Below, in pieces: positions 9,926 through 63,914 of a DNA stretch of 64,000 nt (position 1 is its first letter; every line of letters begins with the position of its first letter). Made by a program: the position numbers and the translations under genes. The notes beneath the pieces are model-generated. The model saw only the letters and a list, made by a program, of their open reading frames with translations, was not told the DNA's origin and searched no databases. This DNA is from an uncultured Gemmatimonadales bacterium (GTDB lineage: Bacteria > Gemmatimonadota > Gemmatimonadetes > Gemmatimonadales > GWC2-71-9): assembly GCA_963730915.1 (NCBI GenBank), contig CAVSTR010000004.1, positions 215,014 through 279,013 of the forward strand. The letters run 5' to 3'.

Positions 9926-12098
9926 TCACGCTGGATAGTATCGGCCCCCCGAGCGCGCCATTTCGAGCAGAGAGGGAGCAGGACGGAACCGTTCGCCGAA
10001 CTGCTCCTGCAGCTGATAGAGGACCTCCACGACTCGGGACGCTCCCACGTCGTCGATCATCCTGAGCGGGCCGCCTCGAAATGCGGGAAAGCCGATGCCG
10101 AAGATGGCGCCGATGTCCGCGTCGCGTGGACTTCGCACCACCCGATCGGCGCAGGCCAACGCTGCCTCGTTGAGCATCGAATACACCAGACGCCGCTCGA
10201 CAAGATCTTCGTGCACGTCCTCACCCGGACGCACGCCGAGGAGGTGATAGACGCTCTTGTCCACTCCAGCTTTATGCCCGGCCTTGTAGACGTAGAACCC
10301 GCGGCCGTTCTTGCGGCCCAGCCGGGTGGCGCCAAGCATTCGCGGCAACACCGCTGCCGGCTTCATGCGGTCACCGAACGCCTCGTGCATCACGCTTCCC
10401 GCCTTCTGCGCTACATCGAGCCCCACCTCGTCGAGCAGCGCCACCGGTCCAACCGGAAAACCGAAGGCCGTCATCGTGCGATCGATCAGCTCGATACCCA
10501 CGCCTTCCTGCAGCAGGTATCCTGCCTCGTTGAGATAGGGCGAAAGGATGCGGTTCACCCAGAATCCCGGCCGATCCGCCACCACGATGACGGTCTTGCC
10601 CATCCGGCGTCCGAACCGGACGGCGGTCACGATGGTATCGGGCGTGGTCGCCTCGGTCGGAATCACCTCCAGCAACGGCATGCGTTCAACCGGCGAGAAG
10701 AAATGCATTCCGAGAACCCGGCCAGGGTGCCGAGCGCGGGCCGAAATCTGATGAATTGGAATGGTGGAGGTGTTGGTGGCGATGATCGCCTCGGGACGAA
10801 GCTCAGCTTCCAGCTCGGCCAGTACCTGCCGCTTGACCTCCAGCTCCTCGAAAACCGCCTCGATCACGAGATCGGCTCGCCCGAATCCCCGATAGTCCAC
10901 CGATCCTGACAGGAGAGCGCTCAGCCGCTCGTACTGCTGCTTCGTGATGCGGCGCCGGTCGAGGCGCTCCTTCAACAGGGACGTGGCCGCCTTCAGGCCT
11001 TTCCCGACCCGGACCAGGTCAGAGTCCTTGAGACGAGTATCAACCTCGACGTTCAGCACAGCGGTTCCAGCGATGCCCGAGCCCATGAATCCCGATCCGA
11101 CGATGCCCAGGCGCCGGATCTGCCGAGGAACCGCGGTGCCGGAGCGAACCCCGTCGTCTTTCTTGAGTGCGGTTGTGGCAAAGAAAATCTGCACCAGCTT
11201 GCGCGAGACATCGCCAACGGCGAGCTCGCCAAAGGCACGGTGCTCCTCGGCCAACCCCGCCGCGATTCCCTGCTCGAGGCCGACTTCGACGGCTCCGAGC
11301 GCCGCAAGCGGCGCCGGATAGTGGCCTCCCGTCTTCTTCAGTACTTGCTTCCGCGCTCCCCGATATACCAGGCGTCGCCCTGCCGAGGTGCCGTCGAGAA
11401 ACATGCCGGCAACGCCACCCTTGAGCTGGCGCTTCGGGAGGCCCTCACGAGCGAGTCGTTCGGCCGCGGCAACCGCGACCTGACGCAGTATGCTGGCGGG
11501 CACAACCTCATCGACGAGTCCCAGCCGGTACGCCTTCGACGCACGCTCGGTCTTTCCGGTCAGAATCATGTCCAGCGCGGCTCTCGCACCGATCAGGCGC
11601 GGCAGCCGTTGGCAGCCGCCTGCCCCCGGAATGAGTCCCAGCTGAACCTCAGGCAGACCGAGCACGGTCTTGGGATGGTCTGACGCGACCCGGTAGTGGC
11701 ACGCAAGAGCGACTTCGAGACCCCCACCAAGACAGGCGCCGTGAATGGCGGCGACAATCGGCTTCTGAAAGGTCTCCAGACGACTCACCGTCTCCTGGCC
11801 CTCGAAGCTGAGCCGTTCGGCCTCGGTCTGAGTCGTGATCGCGGTAAACTCCTCGATATCGGCACCGGCGATGAAGTTGTCGGGCTTGCCCGAGATGAGT
11901 ACAACGGCTCGTACCGCGCTGTCGTCGCGCAGGTGACTGAGCAGCGACTCCATCTCGGTCTTCACTGCCGGAGCTCAGCTTGTTGACCGGCTCACCCGGC
12001 AAGTTGAACGTGACGACGGCGATGCCGGTTTCGATGGTAGTGTTGAAGGCAGATCCGGTGGCAGATGTCGAGGGTCTAGGGTCTAGAGTCGAAGTCAA
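9926..12098 (-). CDS. fadJ: fatty-acid oxidation complex alpha subunit (enoyl-CoA hydratase / 3-hydroxyacyl-CoA dehydrogenase), one frameshift near 11966
   Basis: ORF 9926..11965 holds the crotonase part (FIAGADIEEF, AAIHGACLGGGLEVALACHYR) and the HAD part (LGIVGSGFMGSGIA). The N-terminus (IETGIAVVTFNLPGEPVNKLS) is in ORF 11649..12098, one base out of frame. The only upstream start is TTG at 12098, inside a repeat arm. Confidence 0.9.
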
Positions 12099-12173
12099 AG
12101 GCAGTCTCCTCCTGCGGGTGATGCATTGCGCACGCTGGTAGACCCTGGACCCTTGACCCTCGACTCTCGACTC
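12067..12173. repeat. palindromic tandem-repeat element (arms GTCGAGGGTCTAGGGTCTAGAGTC / GACCCTGGACCCTTGACCCTCGAC)
   Basis: The left arm 12067-12096 is nearly the reverse complement of the right arm 12140-12173. It lies between the fadI stop and the fadJ start. Confidence 0.7.
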
Positions 12174-12178
12174 ATCCC

Positions 12179-13474
12179 CTATCTCCGTTCCAATACCATC
12201 GCGTACCCCATCCCACCCTGAGCGCAGATAGACAGCAGGCCGAACTGCACGTCTCGACGCTCCATCTCGTTCGCGAGGGTAGTCACGAGCCGGGCGCCAG
12301 TGGCGGCAAATGGATGCCCGATGGCGATGGAGCCCCCCGCGAGGTTCGTTCGGTCCCAGTCCACCTCACCCACCGGTGCGGGCAGGCCGAGCCGATCGGC
12401 CCAAGCCTGCGAGCCCCACGCCTGCACGTTGGAGAGTACCTGGGCCGCGAAGGCCTCATGTATCTCGACCAGACCGAGATCTTTCCAGGTGATCTCCGCT
12501 CGCTCCAGTGCTTTCGGTACCGCAAACACCGGACCCATCAGAAGCTGCCAGCCGGGGTCCACCGCGCTCACTGCGTAGCTGCGAATGAAGGCGAGAGGCT
12601 TGTGCCCGAGCGCCTTGGCCTTCTCTTCGGCCATGAGAAGCACCGCAGCTGCGCCATCGGTCAGGGGCGACGAGTTCCCCGCGGTGACGGTCCCGTACTT
12701 CCGGTCGAACACCGGCTTCAGCTTCGCCAGTGCGTCCATCGACGTGTCGGCTCTGACGCCGTTGTCGCCGGTGATGACCTGATCCATGTCGGGACCGCTG
12801 AACCAGGGAGCGATCTCGGCGGTGAGTCGCCCGTTGGCTGTTGCTGCCGCCGCACGTTGATGACTCATGAGCGCGAGACGGTCCTGCTCCTCCCGTGAGA
12901 TTCCGTTTTCCTTGGCCATCTTCTCCGCCGACTGTCCCATGCTCTCGCCGGTGGAGGGCTCCGCAATCGCCGGGGTCACCGGCACGAGGTCCCGGGGACG
13001 TACCCGGCCGATGGCCGACACCCGGCCGCCGAAGCTCCGCGCCTTGCTGGCCTCTACCAGGACGCGGCTGAACCGTCGTGAATGCAGAATAGGAATGTCA
13101 GACAATGACTCCACCCCGCCGGCGATGATGGCGTCGGCGTGGCCCAGCAGGATCTGGTCGGCTGCATTATTGATCGCCTGGGCCGCAGATGCGCAGGCGC
13201 GGTTCAGAGTGTAGGCAGGAACGCTGGGGGGGAGTTGCGGGAGCAGGCTTACCTCGCGCGCCACGTTCGGCGTGACGGCGGAGGGCACCACCTGGCTGAA
13301 CACGACTTCGTCGATCTCACGCCCGTCGACCCCGCTGCGGTAGAGCAGCTCCCGGCCCGCATGACGTGCCAGCGCAACCGCCGAGACATCACGAAAGACG
13401 GTGCCACTCTTGGCAAAGGGGGTCCGGACGCCGGCGATAACAGCGACGCGCCGTCCGCGGCGCGAGTCAAGCAT
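12179..13474 (-). CDS. fadI: acetyl-CoA C-acyltransferase (3-ketoacyl-CoA thiolase), FadI-like
   Basis: From internal Met MLDSRRGRRVAVIAGVRTPFAKSG. LNRACASAAQA (active Cys), NSSPLTDGAAAVLLM, GSIAIGHPFAATGARL, ICAQGGMG. Collinear with E. coli FadI as I remember it, and upstream of fadJ as in the fadIJ operon. Confidence 0.9.
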   Translation of the reverse strand: MLDSRRGRRVAVIAGVRTPFAKSGTVFRDVSAVALARHAGRELLYRSGVDGREIDEVVFSQVVPSAVTPNVAREVSLLPQLPPSVPAYTLNRACASAAQAINNAADQILLGHADAIIAGGVESLSDIPILHSRRFSRVLVEASKARSFGGRVSAIGRVRPRDLVPVTPAIAEPSTGESMGQSAEKMAKENGISREEQDRLALMSHQRAAAATANGRLTAEIAPWFSGPDMDQVITGDNGVRADTSMDALAKLKPVFDRKYGTVTAGNSSPLTDGAAAVLLMAEEKAKALGHKPLAFIRSYAVSAVDPGWQLLMGPVFAVPKALERAEITWKDLGLVEIHEAFAAQVLSNVQAWGSQAWADRLGLPAPVGEVDWDRTNLAGGSIAIGHPFAATGARLVTTLANEMERRDVQFGLLSICAQGGMGYAMVLERR

Positions 13475-13519
13475 ACGACTCCGGGTAGAAGTACACGCGG
13501 CCCTTCCCCTTCTCACCTC

Positions 13520-14119
13520 TCACTTCTTACTTCTTACTGCAATGACACTCGCAACAGCCCGCCATCGTTCGGCGTCTACGGTTTCGAACACCTCGCGCCC
13601 ATGCACCACCCTCAGCGGCGCAACCAGGCGGGACAGCTCGCCCGGTCGCAGGAGATGCCGCTCGGATGTCGGGCCCCAGCCCGCCTCTCGCTGCGCCTCG
13701 AGAAACGTCTCCATCATGAGCCGGCCGCCAGGTGCGACCAGCCCGAGAATTTTGGGCATGCTGGCTCGGTCAAGATAATTGAACACCAGGACTGCATCAA
13801 AACTGCCTAGATCCGGCCAAGGACCCTCGAGGTCCATTTCGAGCCATTCGACCGTAAGACCTGCGGCGGCGGCACGATCCTTCGCCAACGCCAGCTTGGC
13901 GGGATCACGATCCACTCCGGTGACGCGTGCGCCCAGCGCCGCAGCCGCCAGGCTGTGGCGGCCCGCACCACACGCCAGGTCGAGCACCCTTGCACCCGCG
14001 CGGATGAAATGAGTATGCCAGACAAACCAGGTGCTGGGCCGGGCAGCACCCGCGATGGAACCCAGGGTCAGGGAAAGCGGTCCGCGGACCGGGCCACTCT
14101 GGGACAGCTCACGTTGCAA
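13520..14119 (-). CDS. class I SAM-dependent methyltransferase
   Basis: ORF 13520..14119: motif I VLDLACGAGRHS, then DAVLVFNYL and APGGRLMM. The start is uncertain (TTG at 14119). Confidence 0.75.
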   Translation of the reverse strand: MQRELSQSGPVRGPLSLTLGSIAGAARPSTWFVWHTHFIRAGARVLDLACGAGRHSLAAAALGARVTGVDRDPAKLALAKDRAAAAGLTVEWLEMDLEGPWPDLGSFDAVLVFNYLDRASMPKILGLVAPGGRLMMETFLEAQREAGWGPTSERHLLRPGELSRLVAPLRVVHGREVFETVDAERWRAVASVIAVRSKK

Positions 14120-16845: not shown

Positions 16846-19800
16846 TTGAGGCTCGTGGATCCAAACGTGTTCGAGACGGCCAACGCTGGCTTCGCGCAGG
16901 CGATGTACGAAGAATTCCTCCGCGACCCGGCCGCCGTCGGCCCGGAGTGGCGCCGCCTGTTCGAGAGCGGGGTTGTGGGGGAGAACGGAAGCGGGGCCGT
17001 GGGGCCGCGGGGCAGCGGCGCAGACGGACACGTACTACCCACAAGGTCCTCAGAGCCTGAACGCCTTGCAACTGCCCCGCTGCCCCGCAGCCCCGCTGAG
17101 AACCCGCCCCGCGGTCCCGCTTCCTCTGCCTCGGGCGCCAGCCCGATCAAGGGCCCCGCCGCCAGGCTCGTCGCCAACATGAACGAGAGCCTGATGGTTC
17201 CTACCGCAACGACGTTCCGCGAGCTGCCCGTCGCGGTGCTCGAGGACCGCCGGCGCAGTCTCAATGCAGCGTTGAAGAGTAGCAACCGGCCCGAAAAGAT
17301 CTCATTCACCCATCTGATCGCGTACGCCATCGTTCAAGCCACTCGGCAGCACCCGGTCATGGGGCACACCCTGCTGATGCGGGATGGAGTTCCGCACCGG
17401 GTGGAGCCTCAGGGCATCGCACTCGGTCTGGCCGTCGACGTTCAGCGTAAGGATGGCAGTCGCGGGCTGGTGGTGCCGGTCATCAAGGGCGCGGAGAACC
17501 TGGACTTCGGCGGTTTCTATGCCGCCTACGAATCACTGGTGGAGAAGGCGCGCAGCAACAAACTGATGCCCGATGATTTCGCGGGCGCCACGATGTCGCT
17601 GACGAACCCGGGCGGACTCGGGACCGTGGCTTCGGTTCCGCGCCTGATGGCGGGCCAGGGGAGCATCATCGCGGTAGGTGCCATCGGACATCCTGCGGAA
17701 TTCTCGAATCTTGCCGACGACCGGCTGCGTGAGATCGGGATCGTCAAAGTCATGACGATCACCAGCACCTACGATCATCGCGTCATCCAGGGAGCCGAAT
17801 CGGGCGCCTTCCTCGGCACCGTCGACCGGCTGCTGCAGGGCGAAGACGGTTTTTACGACCGAGTTGCGGAGAGCCTGAAGCTGAAGCTCGGAAGCCAGGC
17901 CGTGGCCCAGCAGCCTCGCGGCCCGAGGACACTGGAGCCGGTGGCGCCCGAAATGCTGTCCCACGTGGCGGCGGCAATGGCGCTGATCAAGGCGTTTCGC
18001 ATGCACGGACACCTGGCGGCGCGGCTCGATCCGCTCGGAACCGATCCAATCGGCGACCCGGCGCTCGACCCCGCACCTCTCGGTCTCACGCCCGAGATCA
18101 TGGCATCCATACCATCGAAGGTTCTCCGGATTGCGGTGCCTGGAGGTACCCTCGCGGAGTCCCTTCCATATCTGCAGGCCACCTACTGCGGGACCATGGC
18201 CTACGAGATCGAGCACATCTCGACCCATGAAGAGCGGGTCTGGCTTCGCGAAAAGATCGAATCCGGCGCCTACCGCCAGCCGCTCCCACCGGCCGAACAG
18301 CGACAACTGCTCCAGCGTCTCACCCAGGTCGAGACCCTCGAGCGTTTTCTCCACAAGGCGTACCTCGGGCAGAAGCGATTCTCGATCGAAGGCGTGGACA
18401 TGCTGGTTCCCATGCTCGACCTGACCATCGAGAGCGCGGCGGAATCGGGAGCCCGGGACGTCGTCATCGGGATGGCGCACCGGGGGCGTCTCAATGTCCT
18501 TGCCCATACGGTGGGTCGTCCGTACGAGACCATCTTCGCCGAGTTCGAGGGGGGCCGGCAGGTAGAAGGCGGACTGCCGACGCCAGAGGGAGGCACCGGG
18601 GATGTGAAGTATCACCATGGTGCCGAGGGAGCCTACAAGACGTCGAACGGAAAGGCGATCACCGTCAGCTTGTCGCCCAATCCGAGCCACCTCGAGTACG
18701 TATCACCGGTCGTGGACGGTCGCGCACGCGCGAAGCAGACACAGCGGCGGGGACGTGAGCCGCACCACGATCCAACGGCGGCCCTGCCGGTGGCGATTCA
18801 CGGCGATGCCGCGTTTGCAGGTCAGGGCGTGGTGGCAGAGACGCTCAACCTCGGCGCCCTCAAAGGGTATCGCACCGGCGGAACTCTGCATCTGATCACC
18901 AACAACCAGGTCGGTTTCACCACCGACATGGAGGATGCCCGCTCCACCCGCTACGCCTCGGATCTGGCGAAGGGTTTCGACATCCCGATCATCCACGTGA
19001 ATGCCGATGACGCCGAAGCGTGTCTCTCCGCCGTTCGGCTGGCCATGGCATACCGCGACCGCTTCCACCAGGACGTCGTGATCGATCTCGTGGGATACCG
19101 GAGACACGGACACAACGAGGGCGACGAGCCGGCGTACACGCAGCCGTTGATGTACGAGCGTATCAAGAACCTGCCCACGGTGCGTGAAGAGTACGCCCGG
19201 TACCTCATCGAGTCCGGTGCGCTCACCGAGCAGGAAGCGACCACGGAGGCGGAGCAGGCCTATCAGCGTCTGGTCGACATTCAGCAGGCCTTCAAATCCA
19301 GCATGGCCAGGACTCCGACTCAGGAGCGCCAGGTACGGCTCAGTGGGGCAGGGCAGGAGATCGACACCTCTCTCAGTCCCGAGTTCCTGACGGCACTCAA
19401 CGATCAGCTGCACAGCTGGCCCGAAGGATTCGCCGTGCATCCGAAGCTCAAGAAGCAGCTCGAGCGGCGGCGGGCGGCATTCAATCCTGACGGCGGAATC
19501 GAATGGGCTCACGCCGAGGCGCTTGCTCTCGGTTCACTCCTGACTGAAGGTGTTCCGATCCGCTTCACCGGCCAGGACACGGAGCGGGGGACCTTCAGCC
19601 AACGGCATCTCGTGCTGCACGACGTCAATACGGGCGCGACGCTGGCTCCGATCAGCAACCTTCCCGGCGCCCTGGCCCCCATGGAGCTGCACAACAGCCC
19701 GCTCTCAGAGCTGGCGACGCTCGGCTTCGAGTACGGGTACAGCGTCGCGGCGCCCGAGACACTGGTTCTGTGGGAGGCGCAGTTCGGGGATTTCATCAAC

Positions 19801-20590
19801 GCCGCTCAGGTCATCATCGATCAGTTCATCTCCGCCGGTCTGGCAAAGTGGGGACTGACGACCCGGCTGACATTGCTGCTTCCGCATGGATACGAGGGCC
19901 AGGGTCCGGAGCATTCGAGCGCCCGGATGGCGCGCTTCCTCCACCTGGCGGCCGAGGGGAATATCAGGATCGTCAACTGCACGACTCCAGCGCAGTACTT
20001 CCATCTGCTGCGTCGTCAGGCCAAGCGCTCCCGGCAGCGGCCGCTGATTCTGTTCACTCCCAAGAGCCTGCTGCGCCATCCCCTGGCGACGTCCAAACTG
20101 GAGGATCTCACGCAGCGGACAGTTCCGGCCGGTTATCGATGATGCGTATTATGCCGAAAAACCCGACCGGGCTCGCCGGGTGCTGATGTGCACCGGAAAG
20201 GTGTATTACGACCTGCTGCCCGAGGCAGAGAAGCTGGGCGCAGACCGGCCGGCCATTATCCGGCTGGAACAGCTGTATACCTTCCCCTGGAACGAGCTGC
20301 GCGAGGTTCTACCCCGATACAGCAAGGCAACAGAGCTGATCTGGGTGCAGGAGGAGCCGCTCAACATGGGCCCCTGGAGATATCTGGAGGCAAAGCTGCG
20401 CGAGCTGCTGTCCGAAGGGCACCCGATGCAGCTCCACTACGTGGGACGTCCCGAGCGGGCTAGTCCCGCAGAGGGGTACCCCGCTGCCCACCTGGCAGAG
20501 CAGAGTCGAATCGTACGGGAATCACTGGGAGCCGGAACGGGACAGGCCGCGGTGGCGACGACGGCCAAAGCCGGTGAGGGTCAGGGGTAG
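16846..20590 (+). CDS. sucA: 2-oxoglutarate dehydrogenase E1 fused to an N-terminal E2-type acyltransferase domain (Kgd/OdhA type), one frameshift near 20115
   Basis: ORF 16846..20142: acyltransferase core (FTHLIAYAIVQA...TITSTYDHRVIQGAESGAF), then the E1o ThDP domains (RFSIEGVD...GMAHRGRLNVLA...HGDAAFAGQGVV...LLPHGYEGQGPEHSSAR). The C-terminal 135 aa are in ORF 20180..20590 (VLMCTGKVYYDL...WVQEEPLNMGPW). Confidence 0.9.
16987..17124. repeat. palindromic tandem-repeat element inside the sucA/kgd linker coding region
   Basis: The left arm GGAAGCGGGGCCGTGGGGCCGCGGGGCAGCGG (16987-17018) is roughly the reverse complement of the right arm CTGCCCCGCTGCCCCGCAGCCCCGC...CCGCGGTCCCGCTTCC (17072-17124). 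It is translated as the low-complexity linker GSGAVGPRGSGA...APLPRSPAENPPRGPAS. Confidence 0.6.
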
Positions 20591-20596: not shown

Positions 20597-20718
20597 GGGC
20601 GGTATAGAGGAGGCGGAATAAGAGAGGCGGTAGGTACAGAGGCGGAAACGAAAGAGGCGGTAGGCACGGGGGCGGTATTCCGCCGCGTCACCTTCCGCCT
20701 CTTCACCTTCCGCCTCTT
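20597..20718. repeat. palindromic tandem-repeat element (GAGGCGG(T/A)A units vs CCTTCCGCCTCTT units)
   Basis: Six GAGGCGG-type units at 20597-20676, a small hairpin GGCGGTATTCCGCC, then CACCTTCCGCCTCTT x2. It sits between convergent sucA and the HNH gene. Confidence 0.65.
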
Positions 20719-21036
20719 TTACTCCCTATCGGCGAGAGGCCTTTCGGAGGCCTGTCGCGCCAGCTCTCTGAGCGGCTCGGAGAGATGCTCTCCATAATGC
20801 AGGAGGAAAACCCCCCGTGCGCGGCGCTGCATGAGAAACGCCACCAGCGGAGTGTCGGCCTTCGCCGCGTTGCAGTCCTTGCAGGCCAGTACCAGGTTGT
20901 CCGGACGGTCGTAAGCCGTCTGACCCCGGCGGGGCCGCACATGATCGAGAGTGATCGCGTGTTCCGGTGTTTCCGTTCCGCAATACGCGCAAACGGAGCC
21001 GTGTTGAGCAAGGAGCCAATCGCGGTGCGACTGCAT
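20719..21036 (-). CDS. small HNH endonuclease
   Basis: From internal Met MQSHRDWLLAQHGSVCAYCG...ITLDHVRPRRGQ...NLVLACKDCNAAK (HNH with two CxxC pairs). Confidence 0.8.
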   Translation of the reverse strand: MQSHRDWLLAQHGSVCAYCGTETPEHAITLDHVRPRRGQTAYDRPDNLVLACKDCNAAKADTPLVAFLMQRRARGVFLLHYGEHLSEPLRELARQASERPLADRE

Positions 21037-21826: not shown

Positions 21827-22090
21827 GGCGGTAAGGCGGTAGGGCGGAACGCCGGTAGGGCGGTAGGTACAGTCATCGCGAGCGGCCGCCAGGCCGCGTG
21901 GCGATCCCGTAGATCTCGCGCACGTGATTCGGGAGACTGCTTCGGCACTGCGTGCCTCGCAATGACTACCTACCAACCTTCCGTCGCTCCGCTCCGTCTC
22001 TCCGACCCTCCGTCTCACCGTCCCTCCGACCCTCCGTCTCTCCGTCCTTCCCGTCCTTCCCGTCCTCCGGCTATCTTCCCCTTCCCACCG
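21827..22090. repeat. palindromic tandem-repeat element with nested core hairpin
   Basis: G-rich arm GGCGGTAAGGCGGTAGGGCGGAACGCCGGTAGGGCGGTAGGTA (21827-21869). Core hairpin GTCATCGCGAG...CTCGCAATGAC (21872-21968). Long C-rich arm of CCGTCTC/CCGACCCTC/CCGTCCTTC units (21967-22090). It fills the divergent rhodanese/tkt intergenic region and starts 3 nt from the rhodanese ATG. Confidence 0.7.
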
Positions 22091-22154: not shown

Positions 22155-24195
22155 GTGCGACCAGACCCTTCGTCGTCAACCCGAGAATCAGATCCGGCCC
22201 CCGCCGTGGCGTGGCAGAGCATCAATTCCATCCGCGCCCTGGCGATGGACGCCGTCGAGCAGGCTCAGTCCGGCCATCCCGGCACTCCCATGGCGCTGGC
22301 CCCGGCCGCGTACGTTCTGTGGACCCGCTTTCTTCGTCACAACCCGGCAAATCCTGAGTGGGCGGACCGCGATCGTTTCGTGCTTTCATGCGGCCACGCT
22401 TCGATGCTGCTGTATTCGGTGCTGCACCTCAGCTGGGTACGATCTCTCGCTCGACGAGCTCAGGAACTTCCGGCAGTGGGGATCACGTACGCCCGGTCAT
22501 CCGGAGCGCGGGCACACCCCGGAGTCGAGACTACCACGGGACCGCTGGGGCAGGGATTCGGCAACGCAGTCGGTATGGCGATAGCCGAGCGGTTTCTGGC
22601 AGATCACTTCAACCGTCCGGGGCACACCATCGTCGATCATCGGGTGTGGGCTTTCGCCAGCGATGGCGACCTGATGGAAGGCGTTGCCTCTGAGGCGGCG
22701 TCGCTGGCCGGCCATCTTCGGCTGGGCAAGCTCACGGTGGTGTATGACGACAACCACATCACGATCGACGGCGACACGGCTCTCAGCTTCTCCGAGGACG
22801 TGGCGCGTCGTTTCGAGGCGTACGGCTGGCATGTCGCCCGTGTAGGAGACGGCAACGATCTCGCCGCGATCGCCGCCGCGTACGAAGGCGCCCGAGCAGA
22901 GACGAGCCGGCCATCGCTGATCATCCTCCGAACGGTGATTGCCGACCCGGCGCCTACCAAGCGGAATACCGCCGACGCCCACGGGAGTCCGCTCGGCGCC
23001 GACGAGGTCAAGCGAACCAAAGAGATCATGGGCTGGCCTCAGGAGCCGAAGTTCTACATCCCGGACGAAGCGCTCGCCGACTGGCGCAGAGCGCTGACCA
23101 GAGGCGCCGAGCTCGAATCCGAGTGGCAGCGTCGGCTCGATGCGTACACGGCGGCCCAACCGGAACTCGCATCCGAGTTCCGCCGGTGGCTGTCCGGCGA
23201 TCTTCCGATGGATTGGGACAAGAACCTGCCGGTGCTCGGCCCCGGTGCTGGACAGCTGGCGACTCGCCAGGCGTCAGGTCTCGCTCTTCAAGCCATCGCC
23301 ACAACGGTACCCAACCTCATCGGCGGCTCCGCCGATCTCGGAACCAGCACCGGCACCACCCTGAAGCAGGGCGGCAGTTTCAGCGCCTCCACCAGCGGCC
23401 GCACCTTTCACTGGGGTGTGCGGGAGCATGGAATGGCCGCGTGCCTGAACGGAATCGCCGCTCACGGCGGGCTTCGGCCGTTCGGCAGCACCTTCCTGGT
23501 GTTCTCCGACTACATGAAGCCATCGATCCGGCTGGCCGCGATCATGCGTCTGCCGGTCATCTATATTGGCACGCACGATTCCATCGGTGTGGGAGAGGAT
23601 GGTCCGACCCACCAGCCGGTAGAACACCTGGCGATGCTCCGCGCTATTCCCAATCTGGTGACCATCCGGCCCGGAGATGCCACCGAGACGATCGAGGCCT
23701 GGCGGGTGGCGATGGAACGCCGGGACGGACCGACGATGTTGGTGCTGACCCGTCAGAAGCTCGCGGTGCTGGACCGCACCCAGCTCGCTGCCGCTGACGG
23801 CGTAAGGCGGGGCGCCTACGTGCTCACGGACCCCGCAGGCGACGGCGGGCTCGATGCCATACTGATCGGAACCGGGTCGGAGCTCGGGCGTGGCACTCGG
23901 GGCCGCTCGGCTGTTGCAGGCCGACGGAGTGAGGGCGCGAGTCGTTTCGATGCCTTCGTGGGAACTGTTCGCCGCTCAGCCCGAGCGTTACCGTAACGTG
24001 GTGCTTCCGCCTGCCGTCCGTACCCGCGTAGCGGTCGAAGCAGCGGGACCGTTCGGCTGGTCTCGCTGGATCACCGATGACGGAGCCATGATCGGCATGG
24101 AGGGGTTCGGAGCGTCAGCCCCGGGCGAACGCCTGTATCAGGAATTCAAACTCACGCCGGAACAGGTGGCGGCAACGGTGAAACGGATCTTATGA
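22155..24195 (+). CDS. tkt: transketolase, three frameshifts (near 22437, 22512, 23888)
   Basis: [95 protein letters not shown] compensating indel pair garbles about 25 codons (the correct reading [24 protein letters not shown] is in ORF 22358..22693). The C-terminus is in ORF 23890..24195. Confidence 0.9.
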
Positions 24196-26556: not shown

Positions 26557-26736
26557 TTCACCACAGAGGGAGAGAGGGCACAGAGGTTTCGTCAGCTGCT
26601 TGCAGTATCGTTCTCCCCTAACGGAGATCAATACAAGGGTTTTTGTACAACAACCACAGCATTGGCGCTCATCATGGGAGTGCCGGAAGCGGCTGGGATG
26701 ACGTGACCTCTGTGCCCTCTCTCCCTCTGTGGTGAA
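26557..26736. repeat. 180-bp element with perfect 31-bp terminal inverted repeats
   Basis: TTCACCACAGAGGGAGAGAGGGCACAGAGGT (26557-26587) is the exact reverse complement of 26706-26736. The 118-nt core contains GTCATCCCAGCC on the minus strand. Confidence 0.8.
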
Positions 26737-28644: not shown

Positions 28645-28843
28645 GGAGGGTCGGAGAGGTCGGAGGATTAGGCAGGGTCGGAGGGTCGGAGGGTCGGGAA
28701 GGAAATGAACTCCTCATCCCGAGTGCAACGAGGGATCTACTCAGCCAACTCTCGGATCTGGTTAGATAGATCCTTCGCTTTGCTCAGGATGAGGAGTCTG
28801 GTTTTCCCGGCCTTCCCGTCCCTTCCCGCCCTACCTCACTCTC
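28636..28843. repeat. palindromic tandem-repeat element with nested core hairpin
   Basis: G-rich arm GGGCGGTAGGGAGGGTCGGAGAGGTCGGAGG...GGGTCGGAGGGTCGGAGGGTCGGGAAGG (28636-28703). Core hairpin ACTCCTCATCCCGAGTGCAACGAGGGATCTA ... TAGATCCTTCGCTTTGCTCAGGATGAGGAGT (28709-28797). C-rich arm TCCCGGCCTTCCCGTCCCTTCCCGCCCTACCTCAC (28805-28843). It sits between the convergent stops of the M61 and PPIase genes. Confidence 0.75.
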
Positions 28844-43484: not shown

Positions 43485-43486
43485 AG

Positions 43487-43513
43487 CGGTCGGAATCGAA
43501 CCGACGAATAGAG
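43487..43513 (-). repeat. isolated tRNA T-arm fragment
   Basis: GCGGTCGGAATCGAACCGACGAATAGAG shares the T-arm GTCGGAATCGAACCGAC with tRNA-Cys but has different acceptor-side bases. Confidence 0.5.
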
Positions 43514-43538
43514 TCGGAAACCAACCAGGGAGCCATGC

Positions 43539-44585: not shown

Positions 44586-44945
44586 GGACCACCTCCCGAC
44601 TCGGATCCAGCGGCAGAGCGGTTAATAGAAGTTCTAATTCAATAGCTGTACCGTTAAAGTAGCGTAAAAAGTAGCTGGATGCCTGGACTCCATCTGTCTC
44701 CTTGTTGTCGTTGGGCGCGCTCCGTAGCAAACATTTACTGCTAGCTAGCACCCGCGACGTCTCGTCTGATAACGATGACGAGCAGGCTGCTTGAGGCCGA
44801 GTTCTCCTATCGATGACGCGTACTTGGGGATAGCTTCGTACCGCCCACTTGGCCCCTCATCTGCCCCGCTGCCAACTTCCGAGCGTCGCCCAGGACGTTC
44901 CGGCTCACCCAAAGCGGGCTGGAGGCGAGTATGCACTGCAGCATC

Positions 44946-47000: not shown

Positions 47001-47117
47001 AGATGGCGAGAAAGGCGTCGCTGCGTCGCCACTGCAGTACCGTTTTGCGACCAGAACCTTCCCCTAACCGAAAAAGGGGCCTCCACTGTGGAGGCCCTAA
47101 GTCGTTGTGGTTCAGAG

Positions 47118-52673: not shown

Positions 52674-52690
52674 GTCGTTGTGGTTCAGAG

Positions 52691-52762
<72 letters not shown>

Positions 52763-52776
52763 GCGGGGGGAATGAT

Positions 52777-52882
52777 AGGGCGGTAGGGCGGTAGGGCGGT
52801 AGGGCGGTCATGTACAGGTCCTGTGACCATCGCCTTCGTTACCTGCCACATTCCATCTACCGCTTGACCGCCTTACCGCCCT
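52777..52882. repeat. palindromic tandem-repeat element ((A)GGGCGGT x4 vs CTACCGC../CTTACCGCCC)
   Basis: AGGGCGGTAGGGCGGTAGGGCGGTAGGGCGGT (52777-52808), a 48-nt core, then CTACCGCTTGACCGCCTTACCGCCCT (52857-52882). It is directly upstream of the tRNA-Cys 5' end. Confidence 0.7.
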
Positions 52883-59735: not shown

Positions 59736-59764
59736 CTCGGGCTCGGTCAGGGTATATTTCCCGG

Positions 59765-60460
59765 GTGACGCTGCTCTCGCTGCTCCTCTCGCATGCCCTT
59801 CTCCTCACGGGGCTGGCCGCTGCGCCCCCCTTCGAGGTGGGGGAGACGCTTCGGTACGACGCCAAGCTGGGCTACTTCCCCGTCGGCACCGCCACCGTTG
59901 CCGTAAGCCGAACCACCCAGGAGCGCGGGATTGCGGCCTATGTGTTCACCATGGCTGGACAGGGAGGGCCGCCGGGCTGGCGAGTTCGCTACGATCTGAC
60001 GTCGTGGGTCGACAGCCGCCGCTTCAACTCGCTGCGGTTCCACCGGCGTCTGGTCAACGGCAATAAGCTGGACGAGAACGAATACATGATTCTCCCCGAT
60101 TCCGGGCGGTATCGTCAGGTCGGCATGACCGGCGAATGGGTCTCTCCACCGGAGCCCCTGGACGAGCTCGCCTTTCTGTACTTCCTCAGAACCGCGCCGC
60201 TGAAGCTGGGCCAGTCATACACCTATTCGCGATATTTCAGGAACGGCTATAACCCGGTACAGGTAAAGGTCGCCGAGGCTTTGGAGACCGTGACACTGCC
60301 GGACGGTAAGACAGCGCCGGCTTACCCCCTCGAAGTCTCCTCCCGGGGTATGGTCATGAAGGTCTGGATCACCGATGACGCCCGCCGCCTGCCGGTGCAG
60401 CTGGAAGTGCCGCTTCCGTTTGGGGTAGTCACGCTTCAACTGACGGCGGTAGGGCGGTAG
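59765..60460 (+). CDS. DUF3108-family exported protein
   Basis: Signal peptide, then FEVGETLRYDAKLGYFPVGTATVAV... and a beta-rich body, as in DUF3108. The stop lies inside a GGCGGTAGG repeat arm. Confidence 0.6.
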   Translation: MTLLSLLLSHALLLTGLAAAPPFEVGETLRYDAKLGYFPVGTATVAVSRTTQERGIAAYVFTMAGQGGPPGWRVRYDLTSWVDSRRFNSLRFHRRLVNGNKLDENEYMILPDSGRYRQVGMTGEWVSPPEPLDELAFLYFLRTAPLKLGQSYTYSRYFRNGYNPVQVKVAEALETVTLPDGKTAPAYPLEVSSRGMVMKVWITDDARRLPVQLEVPLPFGVVTLQLTAVGR

Positions 60461-60553
60461 GGCGGTACATAGTGAAGCGTTGTAAACCCGTGCGCGCCTG
60501 ACTGCCTCCGCCCTCTTTTCTACCGCCTTACCGGCTTACCGGCCTTCCGCCCC
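60445..60553. repeat. palindromic tandem-repeat element (GGCGGTAGG x3 vs CTACCGCCTTACCGGCTTACCGGCC)
   Basis: Left arm 60445-60467 and right arm 60506-60553, between the convergent stops of the DUF3108 gene and glnA. Confidence 0.7.
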
Positions 60554-60554
60554 A

Positions 60555-61955
60555 CTAATACCGCCCCAAATAATTGTCGATCTCCCACTTGCTCACCTGA
60601 AGGTTGTACTGCAGCACTTCGTCGCGCTTGGCTTCGAGGAACCGCTCCGTCAGGTGTTCGCCCAGTGCCTGCTTGACCACGTCGTCCTTTTCCATCATCT
60701 CCAGCGCCTCATGCAAATCGCGCGGAAGCTCGTCGATCCGGTACTTTCGCCGGTCGCGGTAGCTCATGGCGAAGATGTTGCGGCTCACCGGTTCGCGAGC
60801 GTCGAGCTTGCGTTCGATTCCATCGAGGCCCGCCGCCAGCTGCACCGTCAAGGCGAGGTACGGATTGCAGGATGGATCCGGCATACGAAGCTCGCAGCGG
60901 GTACCCAGCCCACGCCGATCTGGAATCCGGACGAGAGGTGAGCGGTTTCGCATCGACCACGCCACGTTCACCGGTGCCTCGTACCCGGGTACAAGGCGCT
61001 TGTAGCTATTGATCAGCGGATTGGTGATGGCGCAAAATCCTCGAGCGTGCTGGAGCAACCCCTCGATGTAGCTGAGTGCCGTACGCGACAGCTGGTACTC
61101 GGCTTTCGGATCGAAGAAGGCGTTCTCTTTTCCGCGAAACAGCGATTGGTGCGTGTGCATCCCGCTGCCATTGATTCCCTCGATCGGCTTGGGCATGAAG
61201 GACGCGACGAACCCGAAGCGGCTGGCGACGTTGCGCACCACGAACTTGAACGTCGTGAGATTGTCGGCGGTAGTCAGCGCGTCGGCATACCGGAAGTCGA
61301 TTTCGTGTTGCCCGATCGCCACCTCGTGGTGAGCGGCCTCGACTTCGAACCCCATCTCCACCAGCTGCTCGACGATGACGCGCCTGATCTCCTCACCGCG
61401 GTCGACCGGTCCCAGGTCGAAGTACGCCGCGGAGTCGTGGGTGATCGTCGTGGGAGACCCATCCAGCGCCTTCTCGAACAGAAAGAACTCGGCCTCGCAG
61501 CCGGCCATCATCGCGAAGCCAAGCTTGCGGGCCCGCTCCACCTGGCGCTTGAGCGTGGTACGGGGGCAACCGACGAATGGCTCCTCGTTCGGGGTATAGA
61601 TGTCGCAGAGCAGCCGGGCAACACGCCCTCCCTCGTCCTCGTAGGGCAGAATCCGGAACGTGTGCAGATCGGGCTTGAGCAGCATGTCCGATTCCTCGAT
61701 CCGGACGAAGCCTTCGATGGATGATCCATCGAACATGATCTCACCGTCCAGCGCCTTCTCGAACTGGCTGCGCGGCACCTCTACGTTCTTGTTGACACCG
61801 AGGATGTCGGTGAACTGGAGACGGATGAAGTCGACGCTGAACCGCCGGGTGAGCTCCAGTAGCTCCGTCTTCCCGGCTCCCCCGAGGTCGGTAGGAAACC
61901 CCTCGAGGCTGGGGCGGTCGACAGATCCGGGCGGACGCTGCTTTGCTGGGGACAT
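60555..61955 (-). CDS. glnA: glutamine synthetase, type I
   Basis: FIRLQFTDILG..., FDGSSIEGF, GCEAEFFLF, HHEVAIGQHEIDF, PKPIEGINGSGMHTHQSL, NSYKRLVPGYEAP, RNRSPLVRIP. Start at internal Met 61955; the track ORF extends to 61985. Confidence 0.9.
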   Translation of the reverse strand: MSPAKQRPPGSVDRPSLEGFPTDLGGAGKTELLELTRRFSVDFIRLQFTDILGVNKNVEVPRSQFEKALDGEIMFDGSSIEGFVRIEESDMLLKPDLHTFRILPYEDEGGRVARLLCDIYTPNEEPFVGCPRTTLKRQVERARKLGFAMMAGCEAEFFLFEKALDGSPTTITHDSAAYFDLGPVDRGEEIRRVIVEQLVEMGFEVEAAHHEVAIGQHEIDFRYADALTTADNLTTFKFVVRNVASRFGFVASFMPKPIEGINGSGMHTHQSLFRGKENAFFDPKAEYQLSRTALSYIEGLLQHARGFCAITNPLINSYKRLVPGYEAPVNVAWSMRNRSPLVRIPDRRGLGTRCELRMPDPSCNPYLALTVQLAAGLDGIERKLDAREPVSRNIFAMSYRDRRKYRIDELPRDLHEALEMMEKDDVVKQALGEHLTERFLEAKRDEVLQYNLQVSKWEIDNYLGRY

Positions 61956-61986
61956 CAGGTTCCGGAATGTGGTCGTGGAGAACAAC

Positions 61987-62160
61987 GTGAACGGTGAAAA
62001 GTGAAGGGGTGAAAAGTGAACAGTAAACGGTAAACCGGAAGAGCCGGTTCGGACAGCTGCCGAGTTCCCGACCTAGGCCTCTGCGTTGCCACTCAACCAT
62101 TTCACTCTTCACTGCTCACTCTTCACTCACTGTTCACTCTTTAACGAAACCGGTTTACGC
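61987..62160. repeat. palindromic tandem-repeat element (GTGAA(A/G)(A/G)G units vs CTCTTCAC/CACT units)
   Basis: GTGAACGGTGAAAAGTGAAGGGGTGAAAAGTGAACAGTAAACGGTAAACCGG (61987-62038) versus TTCACTCTTCACTGCTCACTCTTCACTCACTGTTCACTCTT...AAACCGGTTTACGC (to 62160). It fills the divergent promoter region of glnA and the zinc-ribbon gene. Confidence 0.7.
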
Positions 62161-62170
62161 TTCTGGTCTC

Positions 62171-62962
62171 ATGGAAGAATCCACCGCCAGACCTTGTCCC
62201 CGGTGCGGTGCCGTGGCCTCGGGAAACTTCTGTAGTGCCTGCGGCACGGCCCTGAGTCACCGTACCTGCACGCATTGCCAGGCGGCCATGTCGGCTGAGG
62301 CACGCTTTTGTCACCGCTGCGGCAGTCCGGCGATCTCGCCGGTCGGTGCTTCTCCGGCCGCATCGGAGCGGAAGGCCTGGATCGTCGCCGGCGTTGCGTG
62401 TGTTCTGCTGGTGGGTGCAATCGCCTACCAGGTATCGGATGCAGCTCCCACTCCTGCTACGCCGGACATGTCGAATGCCGGAGCAGCTGGAGGCATTCAG
62501 AGCGGCAGCGCTCCGGTTGGGCCGGCGCCCGACATCAGCGCCATGACCCCGCGCCAGCGGTTCGACCGGCTCTTCAACCGCATCATGCAGGCAGCCGAGC
62601 GGCGGGACTCGGCAGAGGTCCAGCGGTTCACTCCCATGGCCCTCGGGGCCTACGATCAGCTCGACTCCCGCGACGCCGATGCGAGATATCATGCCGCAGT
62701 CCTGCACATGCAGGTAGGAAGCCTGGATGCGGCGCGAGCACTGTCTGATACCATACTCAGCGAATCACCGCACCATCTGTTCGGCTACGTCGTGCGTGGC
62801 GAAGTCGCGGAGCTCGAGGGGGCCGACCAACCGCTGGCGAAGGCTCGCCGGGACTTTCTGGCGCAGTATCCGTCGCAAATAGCCACGAAGCGGGTAGAAT
62901 ATCTGGAGCACCAGCCCGTGCTTGACGAGTTCAAGACGAAAGCCGAGGGTGGCACCAGATGA
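62171..62962 (+). CDS. double zinc-ribbon membrane protein with helical-repeat C-domain
   Basis: CPRCGAVASGNFCSACG and CTHCQAAMSAEARFCHRCG, one TM (AWIVAGVACVLLVGAIAY), then a TPR-like C-terminal part. Confidence 0.65.
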   Translation: MEESTARPCPRCGAVASGNFCSACGTALSHRTCTHCQAAMSAEARFCHRCGSPAISPVGASPAASERKAWIVAGVACVLLVGAIAYQVSDAAPTPATPDMSNAGAAGGIQSGSAPVGPAPDISAMTPRQRFDRLFNRIMQAAERRDSAEVQRFTPMALGAYDQLDSRDADARYHAAVLHMQVGSLDAARALSDTILSESPHHLFGYVVRGEVAELEGADQPLAKARRDFLAQYPSQIATKRVEYLEHQPVLDEFKTKAEGGTR

Positions 62963-63801
62963 CACGGATCATACGAGTGGCCCACAGCCCGGATTCGGAC
63001 GACGCGTTCATGTTCTACGCTCTGGCAGAGGGCAAGCTCGACACGGGCTCACTCCAGTACATGCATGAGCTCAGCGACATCGAATCGTTGAATCAGCGGG
63101 CCCTCCGCGCGGAGCTCGAGGTGACCGCGGTCTCGATCCATGCCTACGCCTATCTGTGGCGGAACTACGTGCTGCTCGGATCCGGGTCGTCCATGGGCGA
63201 CGGATACGGGCCGCGCCTGGTCTCCAGGATCGAGCGTCCGGACGATCCTCGTCTGGCTCTCCGCGGCCTGCGAGTTGCGGTGCCCGGCAAGCTGACGACG
63301 GCATACCTGGGGCTTCAGCTCTATCAACCCGATGTCATCAGCGTCGTCGTGCCGTTCGATCAGATCGAAGACGCCGTGCATGCCGGCGAGGTGGATGTCG
63401 GTCTCCTGATCCATGAAGGACAGCTGACTTTCGGGGATGCGGGTCTTCACCTCTGGACCGATCTTGGGGCCTGGTGGCTGGAAGAAACCGGGCTGCCACT
63501 GCCACTTGGCGGCAATGCGGTGCGTCGGGATCTGGGTCCCGAGGTGATCGCCCAGATTGCCCGGGATCTGCGTGCCAGCATTGTATACGCCCTGGAACAC
63601 AGGGCCCCCGCCCTGGCTCACGCGCGGCAGTTCAACCGGGGAATCGGCGACGAACGCACGGACACGTTCGTCGGCATGTACGTCAACGAGTGGACCGTCG
63701 ACTACGGCCCTCGAGGGCGGCAAGCGGTACAGCTGCTGCTCGACCGCGCCCACGCCGCGGGTGTCGTCCCCGAGCGGGTGACAGTAGAGTTTGTTGGATG
63801 A
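62959..63801 (+). CDS. MqnA/MqnD-family protein (futalosine-pathway menaquinone biosynthesis family)
   Basis: RVAHSPDSDDAFMFYALAEGKLDT... and HEGQLTF match the family pattern I recall. ATGA overlap with the upstream gene. Confidence 0.65.
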   Translation: MTRIIRVAHSPDSDDAFMFYALAEGKLDTGSLQYMHELSDIESLNQRALRAELEVTAVSIHAYAYLWRNYVLLGSGSSMGDGYGPRLVSRIERPDDPRLALRGLRVAVPGKLTTAYLGLQLYQPDVISVVVPFDQIEDAVHAGEVDVGLLIHEGQLTFGDAGLHLWTDLGAWWLEETGLPLPLGGNAVRRDLGPEVIAQIARDLRASIVYALEHRAPALAHARQFNRGIGDERTDTFVGMYVNEWTVDYGPRGRQAVQLLLDRAHAAGVVPERVTVEFVG

Positions 63802-63808
63802 GGGCTGA

Positions 63809-63914
63809 CAGCTAGGAGCTGGGAGCTAGGAGCTGGAAGCGCCCGGGATTACCGAATGAATGACTCCTGACTTCTAGCTCATGACTCCCAGCTCCTAGCT
63901 CCTAGCTCCCAGCT
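63809..63914. repeat. palindromic tandem-repeat element (GCTAGGAGCTGGGA units)
   Basis: CAGCTAGGAGCTGGGAGCTAGGAGCTGG (63809-63836) versus CCCAGCTCCTAGCTCCTAGCTCCCAGCT (63887-63914). Confidence 0.7.

Follow-up and report, generated by a model that had tools for sequence, protein, structure and literature searches.

The window analysed here is a 64-kb stretch of a Gemmatimonadales genome (G+C content 63%), and it carries ten long, imperfect palindromes whose arms are arrays of short tandem repeats, one arm being rich in G and the other rich in C. The genes that flank them are housekeeping genes (Pfam), encoding a thiolase, a FadJ-like protein, SucA/Kgd, a rhodanese, a transketolase, an SDF symporter, an M61 peptidase, a DUF3108 protein, GlnA, a zinc-ribbon protein and a menaquinone-synthesis enzyme. 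Here, we describe these elements and their counterparts in related genomes, and weigh how they might have arisen.

With the M61 peptidase (26776-28644) as the query, the closest relatives are metagenome-assembled genomes (MAGs) labelled Gemmatimonadales, at 78-80% amino-acid identity; an exact-protein look-up of the same peptidase for same-species contigs gave no match. The window was compared with 80 loci around the M61 gene from genomes (L001-L080) and 80 loci around glnA from metagenomes (L081-L160), and the window and these 160 related loci together form a set of 2.05 Mb. At the nucleotide level the nearest of the relatives compared is L081 (~85% identical, with 98% GlnA identity). Tandem arrays were identified with Tandem Repeats Finder (TRF) and arms were paired with an inverted-repeat finder, while hairpins were scanned for by a gapless, seed-and-extend procedure that allows Watson-Crick pairs only, with dinucleotide shuffles as controls. 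Pfam was applied to key genes, and 20 open reading frames (ORFs) of the window were scanned.

Ten palindromes with tandem-repeat arms

The first-pass annotation, made from the letters of the window, reported one shared architecture at ten loci, on which TRF arrays, inverted repeats and folds now agree: all ten are confirmed as genuine long imperfect palindromes with arms of tandem repeats. Both arms are tandem arrays at every locus (units of 7-9 nt, up to ~17 nt). RNA folds of the loci range from -51 to -111 kcal/mol (plus-strand z -2.7 to -11.6), the minus strand folding about as stably, and folds of the six shorter loci with DNA parameters give z -2.2 to -6.2.

Element 1 (12067-12173) lies between the stop of the thiolase gene (fadI/fadA-like; 12179) and the start of the fadJ-like gene (11965), both on the minus strand; its G arm (12067-12090, GGGTCTA/GTCGA units) is followed by a core (12091-12140) and a C arm (12141-12173), and its basis is I14 (24 nt, 88%), RNA dG -52.3 with z -5.7 and DNA z -4.4. 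Element 2 (16987-17124, plus strand) is made up of a G arm at 16987-17023 with GCGGGGCC/GCGGGGCA units, a core at 17024-17071 and a C arm at 17072-17124 (RNA dG -91, z -7.2; Pfam on its host ORF). Element 3 (20597-20725), which begins 7 nt past the stop (20590) of an OxoGdeHyase_C ORF, is nearly coreless, its G arm (20597-20677; GAGGCGG..., period 15/30) running directly into the C arm (20678-20725; TRF; I2/I3; hairpin score 18; DNA z -4.6). Between the divergent rhodanese (ATG 21824, minus strand) and transketolase genes, element 4 (21827-22090) is lopsided, with a 43-nt G arm of GGCGGTAG units (21827-21869), a core (21870-21966) and a C-rich region of ~120 nt (21967-22090) that is complementary to the G arm only in part (TRF; I17; fold; matches to REP-like motifs); its orthologues lie at 4878-4992 in L001 and 4880-5112 in L002. 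Element 5 (26557-26736), in the spacer that runs from the SDF symporter stop (26539) to the start of M61 (26776), has CACAGAGG-type arms at 26557-26594 and 26699-26736 (38 nt, 95% complementary) around a core at 26595-26698, and is identified by I1, a hairpin score of 32 against a shuffle maximum of 16, and RNA z -11.6.

Element 6 (28636-28843) follows the M61 gene with a G arm of GGGCGGTAG and GGGTCGGA units (28636-28700), a core (28701-28803) and a C arm (28804-28843; TRF; I7; fold dG -106). Its own-arm score is due largely to a REP-like hairpin in the core, and its orthologues in L001 and L002 keep the core type with different arm units. In element 7 (52776-52882), four perfect TAGGGCGG units form the G arm (52776-52810), with a core at 52811-52856 and a C arm at 52857-52882 (TRF, 100% matches; I13; DNA z -5.8). 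The 5' end of a tRNA-Cys gene (anticodon GCA; 52690-52762, minus strand) is 15 nt from this G arm, so that the element stands directly upstream of the tRNA on the transcribed strand; the tRNA is the only match in the window above the gathering threshold of Rfam 15. Element 8 (60445-60553; G arm 60445-60467 with GGCGGTAG units, core 60468-60520, C arm 60521-60553), between the convergent DUF3108 and glnA genes, has the weakest fold (DNA z -2.2; TRF; hairpin score 12). Element 9 (61987-62160) separates glnA from the divergent zinc-ribbon gene (ATG 62171) and has a G arm of GTGAACG/GTGAAAAG/GTAAACG units (61987-62040), a core (62041-62100) and a C arm (62101-62160; TRF; folds). Element 10 (63799-63914) begins directly past the stop (63801) of the menaquinone-biosynthesis gene, with a G arm at 63804-63840 (AGCTAGG/AGCTGGG, a 14-nt super-unit), a core at 63841-63870 and a C arm at 63871-63914 (TRF; I4/I6; hairpin score 21; DNA z -4.5). 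Additionally, a single unpaired, purine-rich array (13500-13538, minus strand; GTAAGAA/GTGAGAG, TRF period 7, 4.3 copies) stands just upstream of the thiolase start in the minority orientation, and no fold was found at it.

The claim that elements often touch start or stop codons holds at four places. The M61 stop TAG (28642-28644) lies within the first GGGCGGTAG unit of element 6, the DUF3108 stop (60458-60460) lies within the second unit of the element 8 G arm, the glnA stop (60555) is 2 nt from the element 8 C arm, and the rhodanese ATG is 3 nt from the element 4 G arm. The supposed contact with the glnA start has to be withdrawn: that start is the conserved ATG at ~61940 and not the TTG at 61985, and element 9 is thus ~45 nt away rather than 2 nt.

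The arms match each other far better than their composition would lead one to expect. Six hairpins in the window score at least 15, against 0.13 per dinucleotide shuffle, and each locus scores 12-33 with its own arm against a cross-locus mean of 6-9 in the window; high cross-locus scores occur only among elements 4, 7 and 8 (loci 21827, 52777 and 60445), all of which share the GGCGGTAG unit. In the 2.05-Mb set, the 43 intergenic pairs of neighbouring G and C arrays have a median normalised complementarity of 0.64, against 0.19 between loci, and 36 of the 43 exceed the 95th control percentile (Mann-Whitney p = 2e-24). Dozens of MAGs and metagenome contigs, assembled independently in different projects, have the same architecture at orthologous and at other sites, which excludes an assembly artefact. 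Two doubts had been attached to the original description, namely that the arms might be no more complementary than any GC-rich low-complexity DNA and that the elements might be absent from relatives; the shuffle and cross-locus controls dispose of the former and the independent assemblies of the latter. Several apparent frameshifts in the window do point to assembly indel errors, but chance complementarity or artefact as the source of the palindromes has, on these controls and assemblies, a negligible probability.

Units vary widely within a narrow frame. Intergenic arrays mostly have period 7 (121 arrays) or period 8 (88 arrays), and the G strand is composed of 50% G, 23% A, 15% C and 12% T. 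Among 85 heptamer arrays there are 45 distinct units, and among 64 octamer arrays 37; GGGAGTC/GGGAATC is the commonest heptamer family in the set. The repeat unit had been described as changing from locus to locus while arm complementarity is kept, and this is correct for seven of the ten window loci, no single genome-wide unit being found; elements 4, 7 and 8, with their common GGCGGTAG unit, depart from it.

The cores at 21872-21966 (element 4) and 28709-28797 (element 6) are hairpins of a separate, REP-like family with the forms GTCATCGCGAG...CTCGCAATGAC and (C/G)TCATCC(C/T)GAG(C/T)G...GGATC. The motif TCATCCYGAGYG, with at most one mismatch, has 144 matches in 83 of the 161 sequences, and REP-like hairpins are found in elements of the relatives L001 (~11900), L083, L087, L094, L095 and L098. 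It appears that hairpins of this kind build up within the loops of tandem-armed palindromes.

Arm order and concerted change of the arms

In every complementary pair the G-rich arm comes first; this polarity is absolute. The G-rich arm is the 5' arm at all ten window loci (p = 0.002 for these alone), and among neighbouring skewed intergenic arrays in the 2.05-Mb set the order is G-then-C in 43 cases, G-G in four, C-C in one and C-then-G in none. When all arrays are counted, 82 G-then-C neighbours stand against seven C-then-G neighbours, and the complementarity of these seven is at control level (0.12-0.28). The reverse complement of a G arm, a core and a C arm has the same order, so the polarity reads identically on both strands and therefore cannot reflect the strand of a gene or of replication. 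The first-pass annotation made no mention of this rule.

Single arrays are also placed asymmetrically with respect to genes. Of 162 skewed arrays, 86 have the 5' end of their G strand no more than 20 nt from an ORF boundary, and 18 have the 3' end so close; the 86 divide into 58 located after a stop, on the coding strand, and 28 located before a start, on the non-coding strand. Arrays number 306 in 0.24 Mb of non-genic DNA and 588 in 1.81 Mb of genic DNA, a ~4-fold difference per kb under crude gene calls. Paired arrays occur between convergent (14 of 35), same-strand (13 of 35) and divergent (8 of 35) genes. Occurrence in every gene orientation and inside the fadI/fadJ operon had already been noted and stands; 16987-17124 is not intergenic, this element being a translated linker of SucA/Kgd.

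Two simple ideas were rejected. Stop triplets are more frequent on the G strand (94/211 units) than on the C strand (22/211); as a cause of G-first order, however, three-frame stops fail, because 24 of the 58 stop-adjacent G arrays lack any stop triplet and stop-adjacent arrays show no enrichment over start-adjacent ones (Fisher p = 0.47). Directional growth of the arrays finds no support: the identity of adjacent units has no gradient along the G strand, with 0.845 for the 5' fifth against 0.839 for the 3' fifth (Wilcoxon p = 0.86).

Arrays gain and lose whole units by slippage. Contigs L084 and L086, which share 98.6% identity over 3605 nt, are separated by a single indel, of 14 nt, which is two units of a G arm. 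Between L085 and L088 the C arm differs by one 8-nt unit, and the G arm by more. These comparisons are all between contigs of relatives. More generally, unit copy number differs among relatives at sites that have kept an element. Turnover at the glnA stop is complete, for relatives with 88-98% identical GlnA carry unrelated units and cores there, or no element. The units at this site are GCCGGTAAG/GGCGGTAG in the window, a 14-15 nt GAGGCGGAAGAAAGA in L081, a GTCAAG-type unit in L082, GGCGGTAC flanking a REP-like core in L083, GCGGGACA in L085 and L088, GCGGTAA in L094, GGGTCGGA in L097 and L098, and GACGGAGA in L101; L089-L092 and L102-L104 have no element.

The arms of an element co-evolve through this turnover. 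The SucA-linker orthologues use GCGGGGCA (window, L010 and L064), GCGGGACA (L002) or GCGGGTAA/GCGGGTAG (L001), and in each of them the variant is present in both arms; the mean unit distance is 0.5 between the arms of one element, against 1.3-1.6 between genomes. At the site between the SDF symporter and M61 genes (SDF-M61), both arms likewise carry the genome's own variant, be it CACAGAGG, CACGAAGG or CACCGAGG, and in L002 even the order of variant spacers is mirrored between the arms. In same-direction gene contexts, G-U-type mismatches were counted 15 times on the sense and 13 times on the antisense strand. This test, which has low power, and the equal folding of both strands led us to reject RNA-strand-specific selection; both fit a complementarity that is kept at the level of DNA rather than RNA.

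At two sites an outer stem is conserved around a hypervariable interior: TTCACCACAGAGG ... CCTCTGTGGTGAA at the SDF-M61 site in many relatives, and AGAAGCGTAAAC ... GTTCACGCTTCT upstream of glnA. Such interiors hold nested arrays or REP-like hairpins. In the spacer between glnA and the zinc-ribbon gene (61940-62171; L081-L106), the outer stem and a TTTCTTTCC box are kept in most relatives around an interior of ~50 to ~200 nt with nested arrays. Stem and box together could be a regulatory structure of the glnA leader; the region gave no credible Rfam match even at E <= 10. Many relatives carry the CACAGAGG-type palindrome (TTCACCACAGAGGCACAGAGG ... CCTCTGTGCCTCTGTGGTGAA) at the SDF-M61 site; L046 and L058 have it at another site as well, and in L001 it forms a tandem pair (9572-9739 and an upstream copy). 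This family of units is perhaps shared more widely than the rest.

Some elements are translated. Element 2 is in frame within the SucA/Kgd ORF (16846-20142) and encodes linker residues 48-93, between the 2-oxogl_dehyd_N domain (aa 11-41) and the acyltransferase-like 2-oxoacid_dh domain (aa 99-331) assigned by Pfam. The window, L001, L002 and L006 all have the linker copy in frame, with other units in the last three, and L001 has GAA in place of TAA within the GCGGGTAA unit at precisely the one copy in which TAA would be read in frame. A Ser/Thr kinase (L087, 1381-1577) has an in-frame element at aa 300-366, between its kinase domain (aa 32-290) and a transmembrane region, and a zinc-ribbon membrane protein, homologous to that encoded at 62171-62962 of the window, has in-frame linker copies in L135 (7569-7643), L148 (799-870) and L153 (7530-7602). 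The units of the kinase and zinc-ribbon copies are genome-specific, and all in-frame copies are G-arm-first. These three proteins represent at least three independent in-frame copies in disordered linkers. In addition, L010, L032 and L064 have frameshifts within the SucA-linker repeat.

Proposed mutational origin and rival explanations

We favour, with roughly even confidence, an account in which the elements are hypermutable microsatellite palindromes, made and remodelled locally by slippage and inter-arm copying, with G-first order arising through survivorship. A local generating mechanism had been suggested before, and it gains from what the relatives show: whole-unit indels reveal slippage, and the concerted evolution of arms indicates copying or compensation. 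On this account, replication slippage adds and removes whole units, as it does in the contig pairs above, and one arm would be copied into or corrected against the other, leaving both with the variant specific to their locus or genome. We infer that the copying route would most likely be intrastrand template switching on a folded nascent strand, as in quasipalindrome correction. Copying is preferred to selection acting pair by pair because the mirrored higher-order patterns are too detailed for the latter, and because the wobble comparison contains no RNA-level signal and coding copies behave alike. The elements settle in any weakly constrained DNA, in spacers of any gene orientation and in the coding sequence of disordered linkers.

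For the polarity, we propose survivorship under polar deletion. A polymerase on a G-rich template would stall at the 3' edge of the array, and the resulting deletions would run to the 5' side of the G strand, taking out the array and 50-300 nt beside it. An array would then persist only where an ORF lies directly on that side, where loss would kill the gene, and a C-first pair, with only its own core and partner on the 5' side, would be open to clean self-excision. Deletions of this kind are found in dog-1 mutants of C. elegans, with one junction at a G-quadruplex (G4) motif and its counterpart at a distance of 50-300 bp to one side (PMC4654259). Polar deletion would explain the polarity of single arrays, of pairs and of in-frame copies, as well as the variable interiors bordered by conserved outer stems; such interiors are consistent with turnover that takes place at the inner (3') edges of G arrays. 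Other routes to the same order are conceivable: the nascent strand may bypass a G-rich template arm only once the complementary arm has been made, or a C-rich arm that emerged first would load Rho before a hairpin could form, although Rho loading fails for translated in-frame copies.

A bolder statement, which we advance tentatively and at well below even confidence, is that G-arm-first order marks the action of an intrinsic mechanism of replication or repair, independent of direction, which creates and polices palindromes, and does not stem from selection on gene expression. That such a mechanism consists of stalling at G-rich arrays in the template, accompanied by polar deletion, by template switching of the nascent strand or by both, is to us a similarly speculative idea. 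If true, a self-perpetuating DNA structure would be rewriting unconstrained stretches of the genome in Gemmatimonadota, Xanthomonas and some cyanobacteria, fixing gene spacing and supplying coding sequence for disordered linkers.

Several points weigh against the mutational account. Many of the counted pairs are orthologous, and the number of independent events is consequently lower than 43 or 82; gene calls in the comparison set are crude, coming from a codon log-likelihood model trained on the window's long ORFs. The absence of a homogeneity gradient along the G strand offers the account no support. Canonical G4 motifs in 11 of 43 pairs leave the stalling structure undefined for the other units. 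Finally, the outer stems upstream of glnA and at the SDF-M61 site are conserved over deep divergence, as a selected hairpin would predict, and convergent genes flank 40% of pairs, a 2.5-fold enrichment over their 16% share of intergenic regions (p = 5e-4).

These last two observations lead to selected RNA hairpins, the main serious rival, which we nevertheless regard as unlikely. Here, the long stem would serve as a bidirectional terminator that needs no U-tract, as a 3'-end protector like E. coli REP, or as an insulator; tandem units would be the easiest mutational path to a longer stem, and a C-first arm would be disfavoured by loading Rho. Besides the convergent-gene excess and the conserved outer stems, this explanation can draw on the position of most elements, which begin a few nt past a stop codon, on the retention of a hairpin at orthologous sites despite turnover, on the very stable folds of either strand, and on the lack of a significant enrichment of canonical hairpin-plus-T-run terminators in 44-64 kb of the window (17 against 12.1 +/- 3.7). 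Yet the three independent coding copies are in places where a terminator would be harmful and where Rho cannot account for polarity; other copies lie between divergent genes and within the fadI-fadJ operon; the element is missing at the glnA stop in several close relatives; the arms are often very unequal, or there is only one; and G-U-tolerated mismatches show no sense-strand excess. Stems of 25-45 bp, loops of 40-120 nt and the lack of a T-run are unlike known intrinsic terminators. The same loops and missing T-run, together with the copies in ORFs, in the operon and between divergent genes, rule out the standard intrinsic terminator as an identity for the class and bear out the earlier statement that the elements are not simply terminators. 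The long hairpins in transcripts may incidentally stabilise or end mRNAs; we saw no evidence that such a function maintains the elements. Hairpin function is also compatible with a mutational origin, in that neutral generation could have been followed by recruitment of some elements.

Two further explanations have to account for the same data. A small mobile family with fast-evolving repetitive termini, such as a MITE (miniature inverted-repeat transposable element) or a REP/BIME moved by a REP-associated tyrosine transposase (RAYT), is suggested by the REP-like core hairpins (GTCATCGCGAG... and CTCATCCCGAG...GGATC) in two window elements and many relatives, by the GGCGGTAG unit common to three window loci, and by a resemblance of the in-frame copies to Rickettsia palindromic elements. 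No core or terminus is conserved across loci, however; units and cores differ wholly at the glnA stop among close relatives, heptamers are as diverse as described above, no similarity to any plasmid record was found, and no RAYT or other transposase domain is present among the 20 ORFs of the 64-kb window scanned with Pfam. Target-site duplications were not noticed, although they were not searched for systematically. The mobile explanation is accordingly very improbable, and the first-pass argument against the spread of one mobile sequence is strengthened by the unrelated units and cores between loci and by the complete difference at the glnA stop among relatives whose GlnA is 92-98% identical. 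REP/BIME identity is rejected for the elements as such, whose arms and cores are unrelated between loci and of which just two core hairpins fit the description, and MITE identity for want of a shared core or plasmid matches. Somewhat less remote, but still improbable, are G4/i-motif regulatory repeats, in which a G4 in the G arm would modulate transcription or translation of the neighbouring gene and the hairpin would be a competing structure; such a role has been proposed for the GGGNATC repeats of Xanthomonas and Nostoc. Textbook G4 motifs do occur in some arms (e.g. 52765-52796 and 28675-28698), and the commonest unit family here, GGGAGTC/GGGAATC, includes the Xanthomonas unit that forms G4 in vitro (PMC4692102). 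A canonical motif (G3+N1-7 x4) is nevertheless found in at least one arm of only 11 of the 43 pairs, which removes G4 as a common denominator; many units, such as GTGAACG, AGCTAGG, CACAGAGG and ATCAGCT, cannot form G4, and the complementarity of the second arm is left unexplained. Integron attC, CRISPR and riboswitch readings were discarded in view of the housekeeping neighbours on both strands, the absence of spacers and the absence of an Rfam match; for attC, the arm ends are without the R-box consensus (RYYYAAC ... GTTRRRY), by inspection only and without a formal scan.

Related repeat classes and adjoining features

Cyanobacterial STRR heptamer arrays have been known for decades. The first-pass annotation knew of no described class with this combination of features, and in this it was mistaken, since convergent heptamer pairs are described in Xanthomonas (Rehm et al. 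2015, PMC4692102) and hairpin-forming STRRs between hupS and hupL (PMC2670836). The present elements have all the architectural features of the Xanthomonas/Nostoc/STRR-like class except a genome-wide unit and general G4 potential, and on this basis we place them in the class of inverted G-rich repeats. A search of the literature for such repeats in Gemmatimonadetes found none.

Xanthomonas genomes have ~185 GGGAATC arrays each and Nostoc has GGGGA(C/T)T arrays (Rehm et al. 2015, PLoS One, PMC4692102). The Xanthomonas arrays are 89-93% intergenic, sit 'almost exclusively' closer to the ORF at their 5' side, regardless of how that ORF is oriented, are rare between divergent ORFs and differ in length between Xcc and Xac; 70-75 pairs per genome are 'always' convergent, with one array on the plus and one on the minus strand (PMC4692102). 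The repeats form G4 in vitro, their function was left unknown, and no tie to gene function or mobile elements was found (PMC4692102). Such convergent pairs have the same G-first palindromic arrangement as the window elements. Head-to-tail G-rich units, intergenic bias, the ORF-proximity rule, length variation and the prominence of GGGAATC/GGGAGTC are likewise common to both. Xanthomonas, however, uses one consensus unit genome-wide, whereas units here are mostly locus-specific, octamers are nearly as frequent as heptamers, and canonical G4 motifs are confined to about a quarter of pairs. Rehm et al. do not report the arm co-evolution, the in-frame copies or the nesting that are seen here (PMC4692102).

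As summarised in PMC2670836, the cyanobacterial STRRs between hupS and hupL are 7-bp tandem, hairpin-forming units of unknown function, for which transcript stability, translational coupling or termination have been suggested. They resemble the present elements in their 7-bp units, intergenic positions (including those inside operons) and capacity for hairpins. They differ in consisting of a few genome-wide heptamers in AT-richer genomes and in the stability of the hairpin (~-10 kcal/mol in one example, against -50 to -110 here), and neither polarity nor arm co-evolution is described for them in that summary. REP/BIME and GTAG/CGTC-tagged palindromes, for which roles in mRNA stabilisation and termination are proposed (PMC3733652), are also intergenic imperfect palindromes near gene ends. 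REPs, however, form families of 20-40 nt with hundreds of conserved copies and a link to RAYT, whereas the arms here are locus-specific tandem arrays. The TAACTGA heptamers of marine Beggiatoaceae and some cyanobacteria are intergenic with a strong ORF orientation rule, and in forward orientation they supply stops in three frames and may overlap ORF ends (PMC4679880). Abundance, intergenic position and orientation rule are shared with the arrays described here; unlike them, TAACTGA arrays are direct repeats (one indirect set in 169) of one AT-rich unit, mostly directed towards start codons. The three-frame-stop property does not account for the polarity seen here.

Rickettsia palindromic elements are a mobile family of conserved sequence that inserts palindromes in frame into protein genes. 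They resemble the in-frame copies here in that hairpin DNA is tolerated in surface or linker regions, but the present copies have genome-specific tandem units and evolve in place. Intrinsic terminators have stems of 5-15 bp and loops of 3-8 nt, and U-tract-less 'I-shaped' hairpins have been proposed as intrinsic terminators in GC-rich bacteria. These, too, are GC-rich hairpins past stop codons, symmetric and in principle bidirectional; besides the long stems and loops without a T-run, the present elements differ in lying also within ORFs, in 5' regions and between divergent genes.

Relative to the Xanthomonas arrays and STRRs, what is new here is the multitude of locus-specific units, the co-evolution of arms and the translated copies. 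The elements extend the architecture and the ORF-proximity rule to a third, unrelated phylum, and their free choice of unit separates what is essential (a 7-8 nt period, G/C asymmetry, the G arm first and ORF abutment) from what is incidental (the unit and G4). Polarity, arm co-evolution and linker copies make the origin of the class testable, and they point to replication or repair and not to gene regulation. The elements are hotspots of whole-unit indels and can contribute stop codons and C-terminal residues; they interfere with ORF calling, with the prediction of start sites and with the consensus of long reads, and could serve as strain-typing markers in abundant soil bacteria.

Three genes of the window have apparent frameshifts (20142-20180, 22155-23996 and 36720-38856), which are either long-read assembly indel errors or pseudogenes. 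SucA/Kgd has a stop at 20142, and its C-terminal OxoGdeHyase_C domain resumes in another frame at 20180-20590; the C-terminus of the transketolase ORF (22155-23996) is garbled; and a PQQ beta-propeller gene (36720-38856) is broken into two ORFs.

A block at ~33400-47000 encodes secreted proteins (Ig-like, cadherin-like, Kelch and subtilase-Kelch), scores poorly with the codon-usage gene caller, with long uncalled gaps, and contains a G+C peak (0.72 at ~38-40 kb). TRF revealed no tandem-armed palindromes in this block. Just past the subtilase-Kelch gene region, at 47077-47097 on the minus strand, stands one textbook intrinsic terminator (GGGCCTCCACAGTGGAGGCCC followed by CTTTTT), and the organism therefore has conventional terminators, at least in this atypical gene block.

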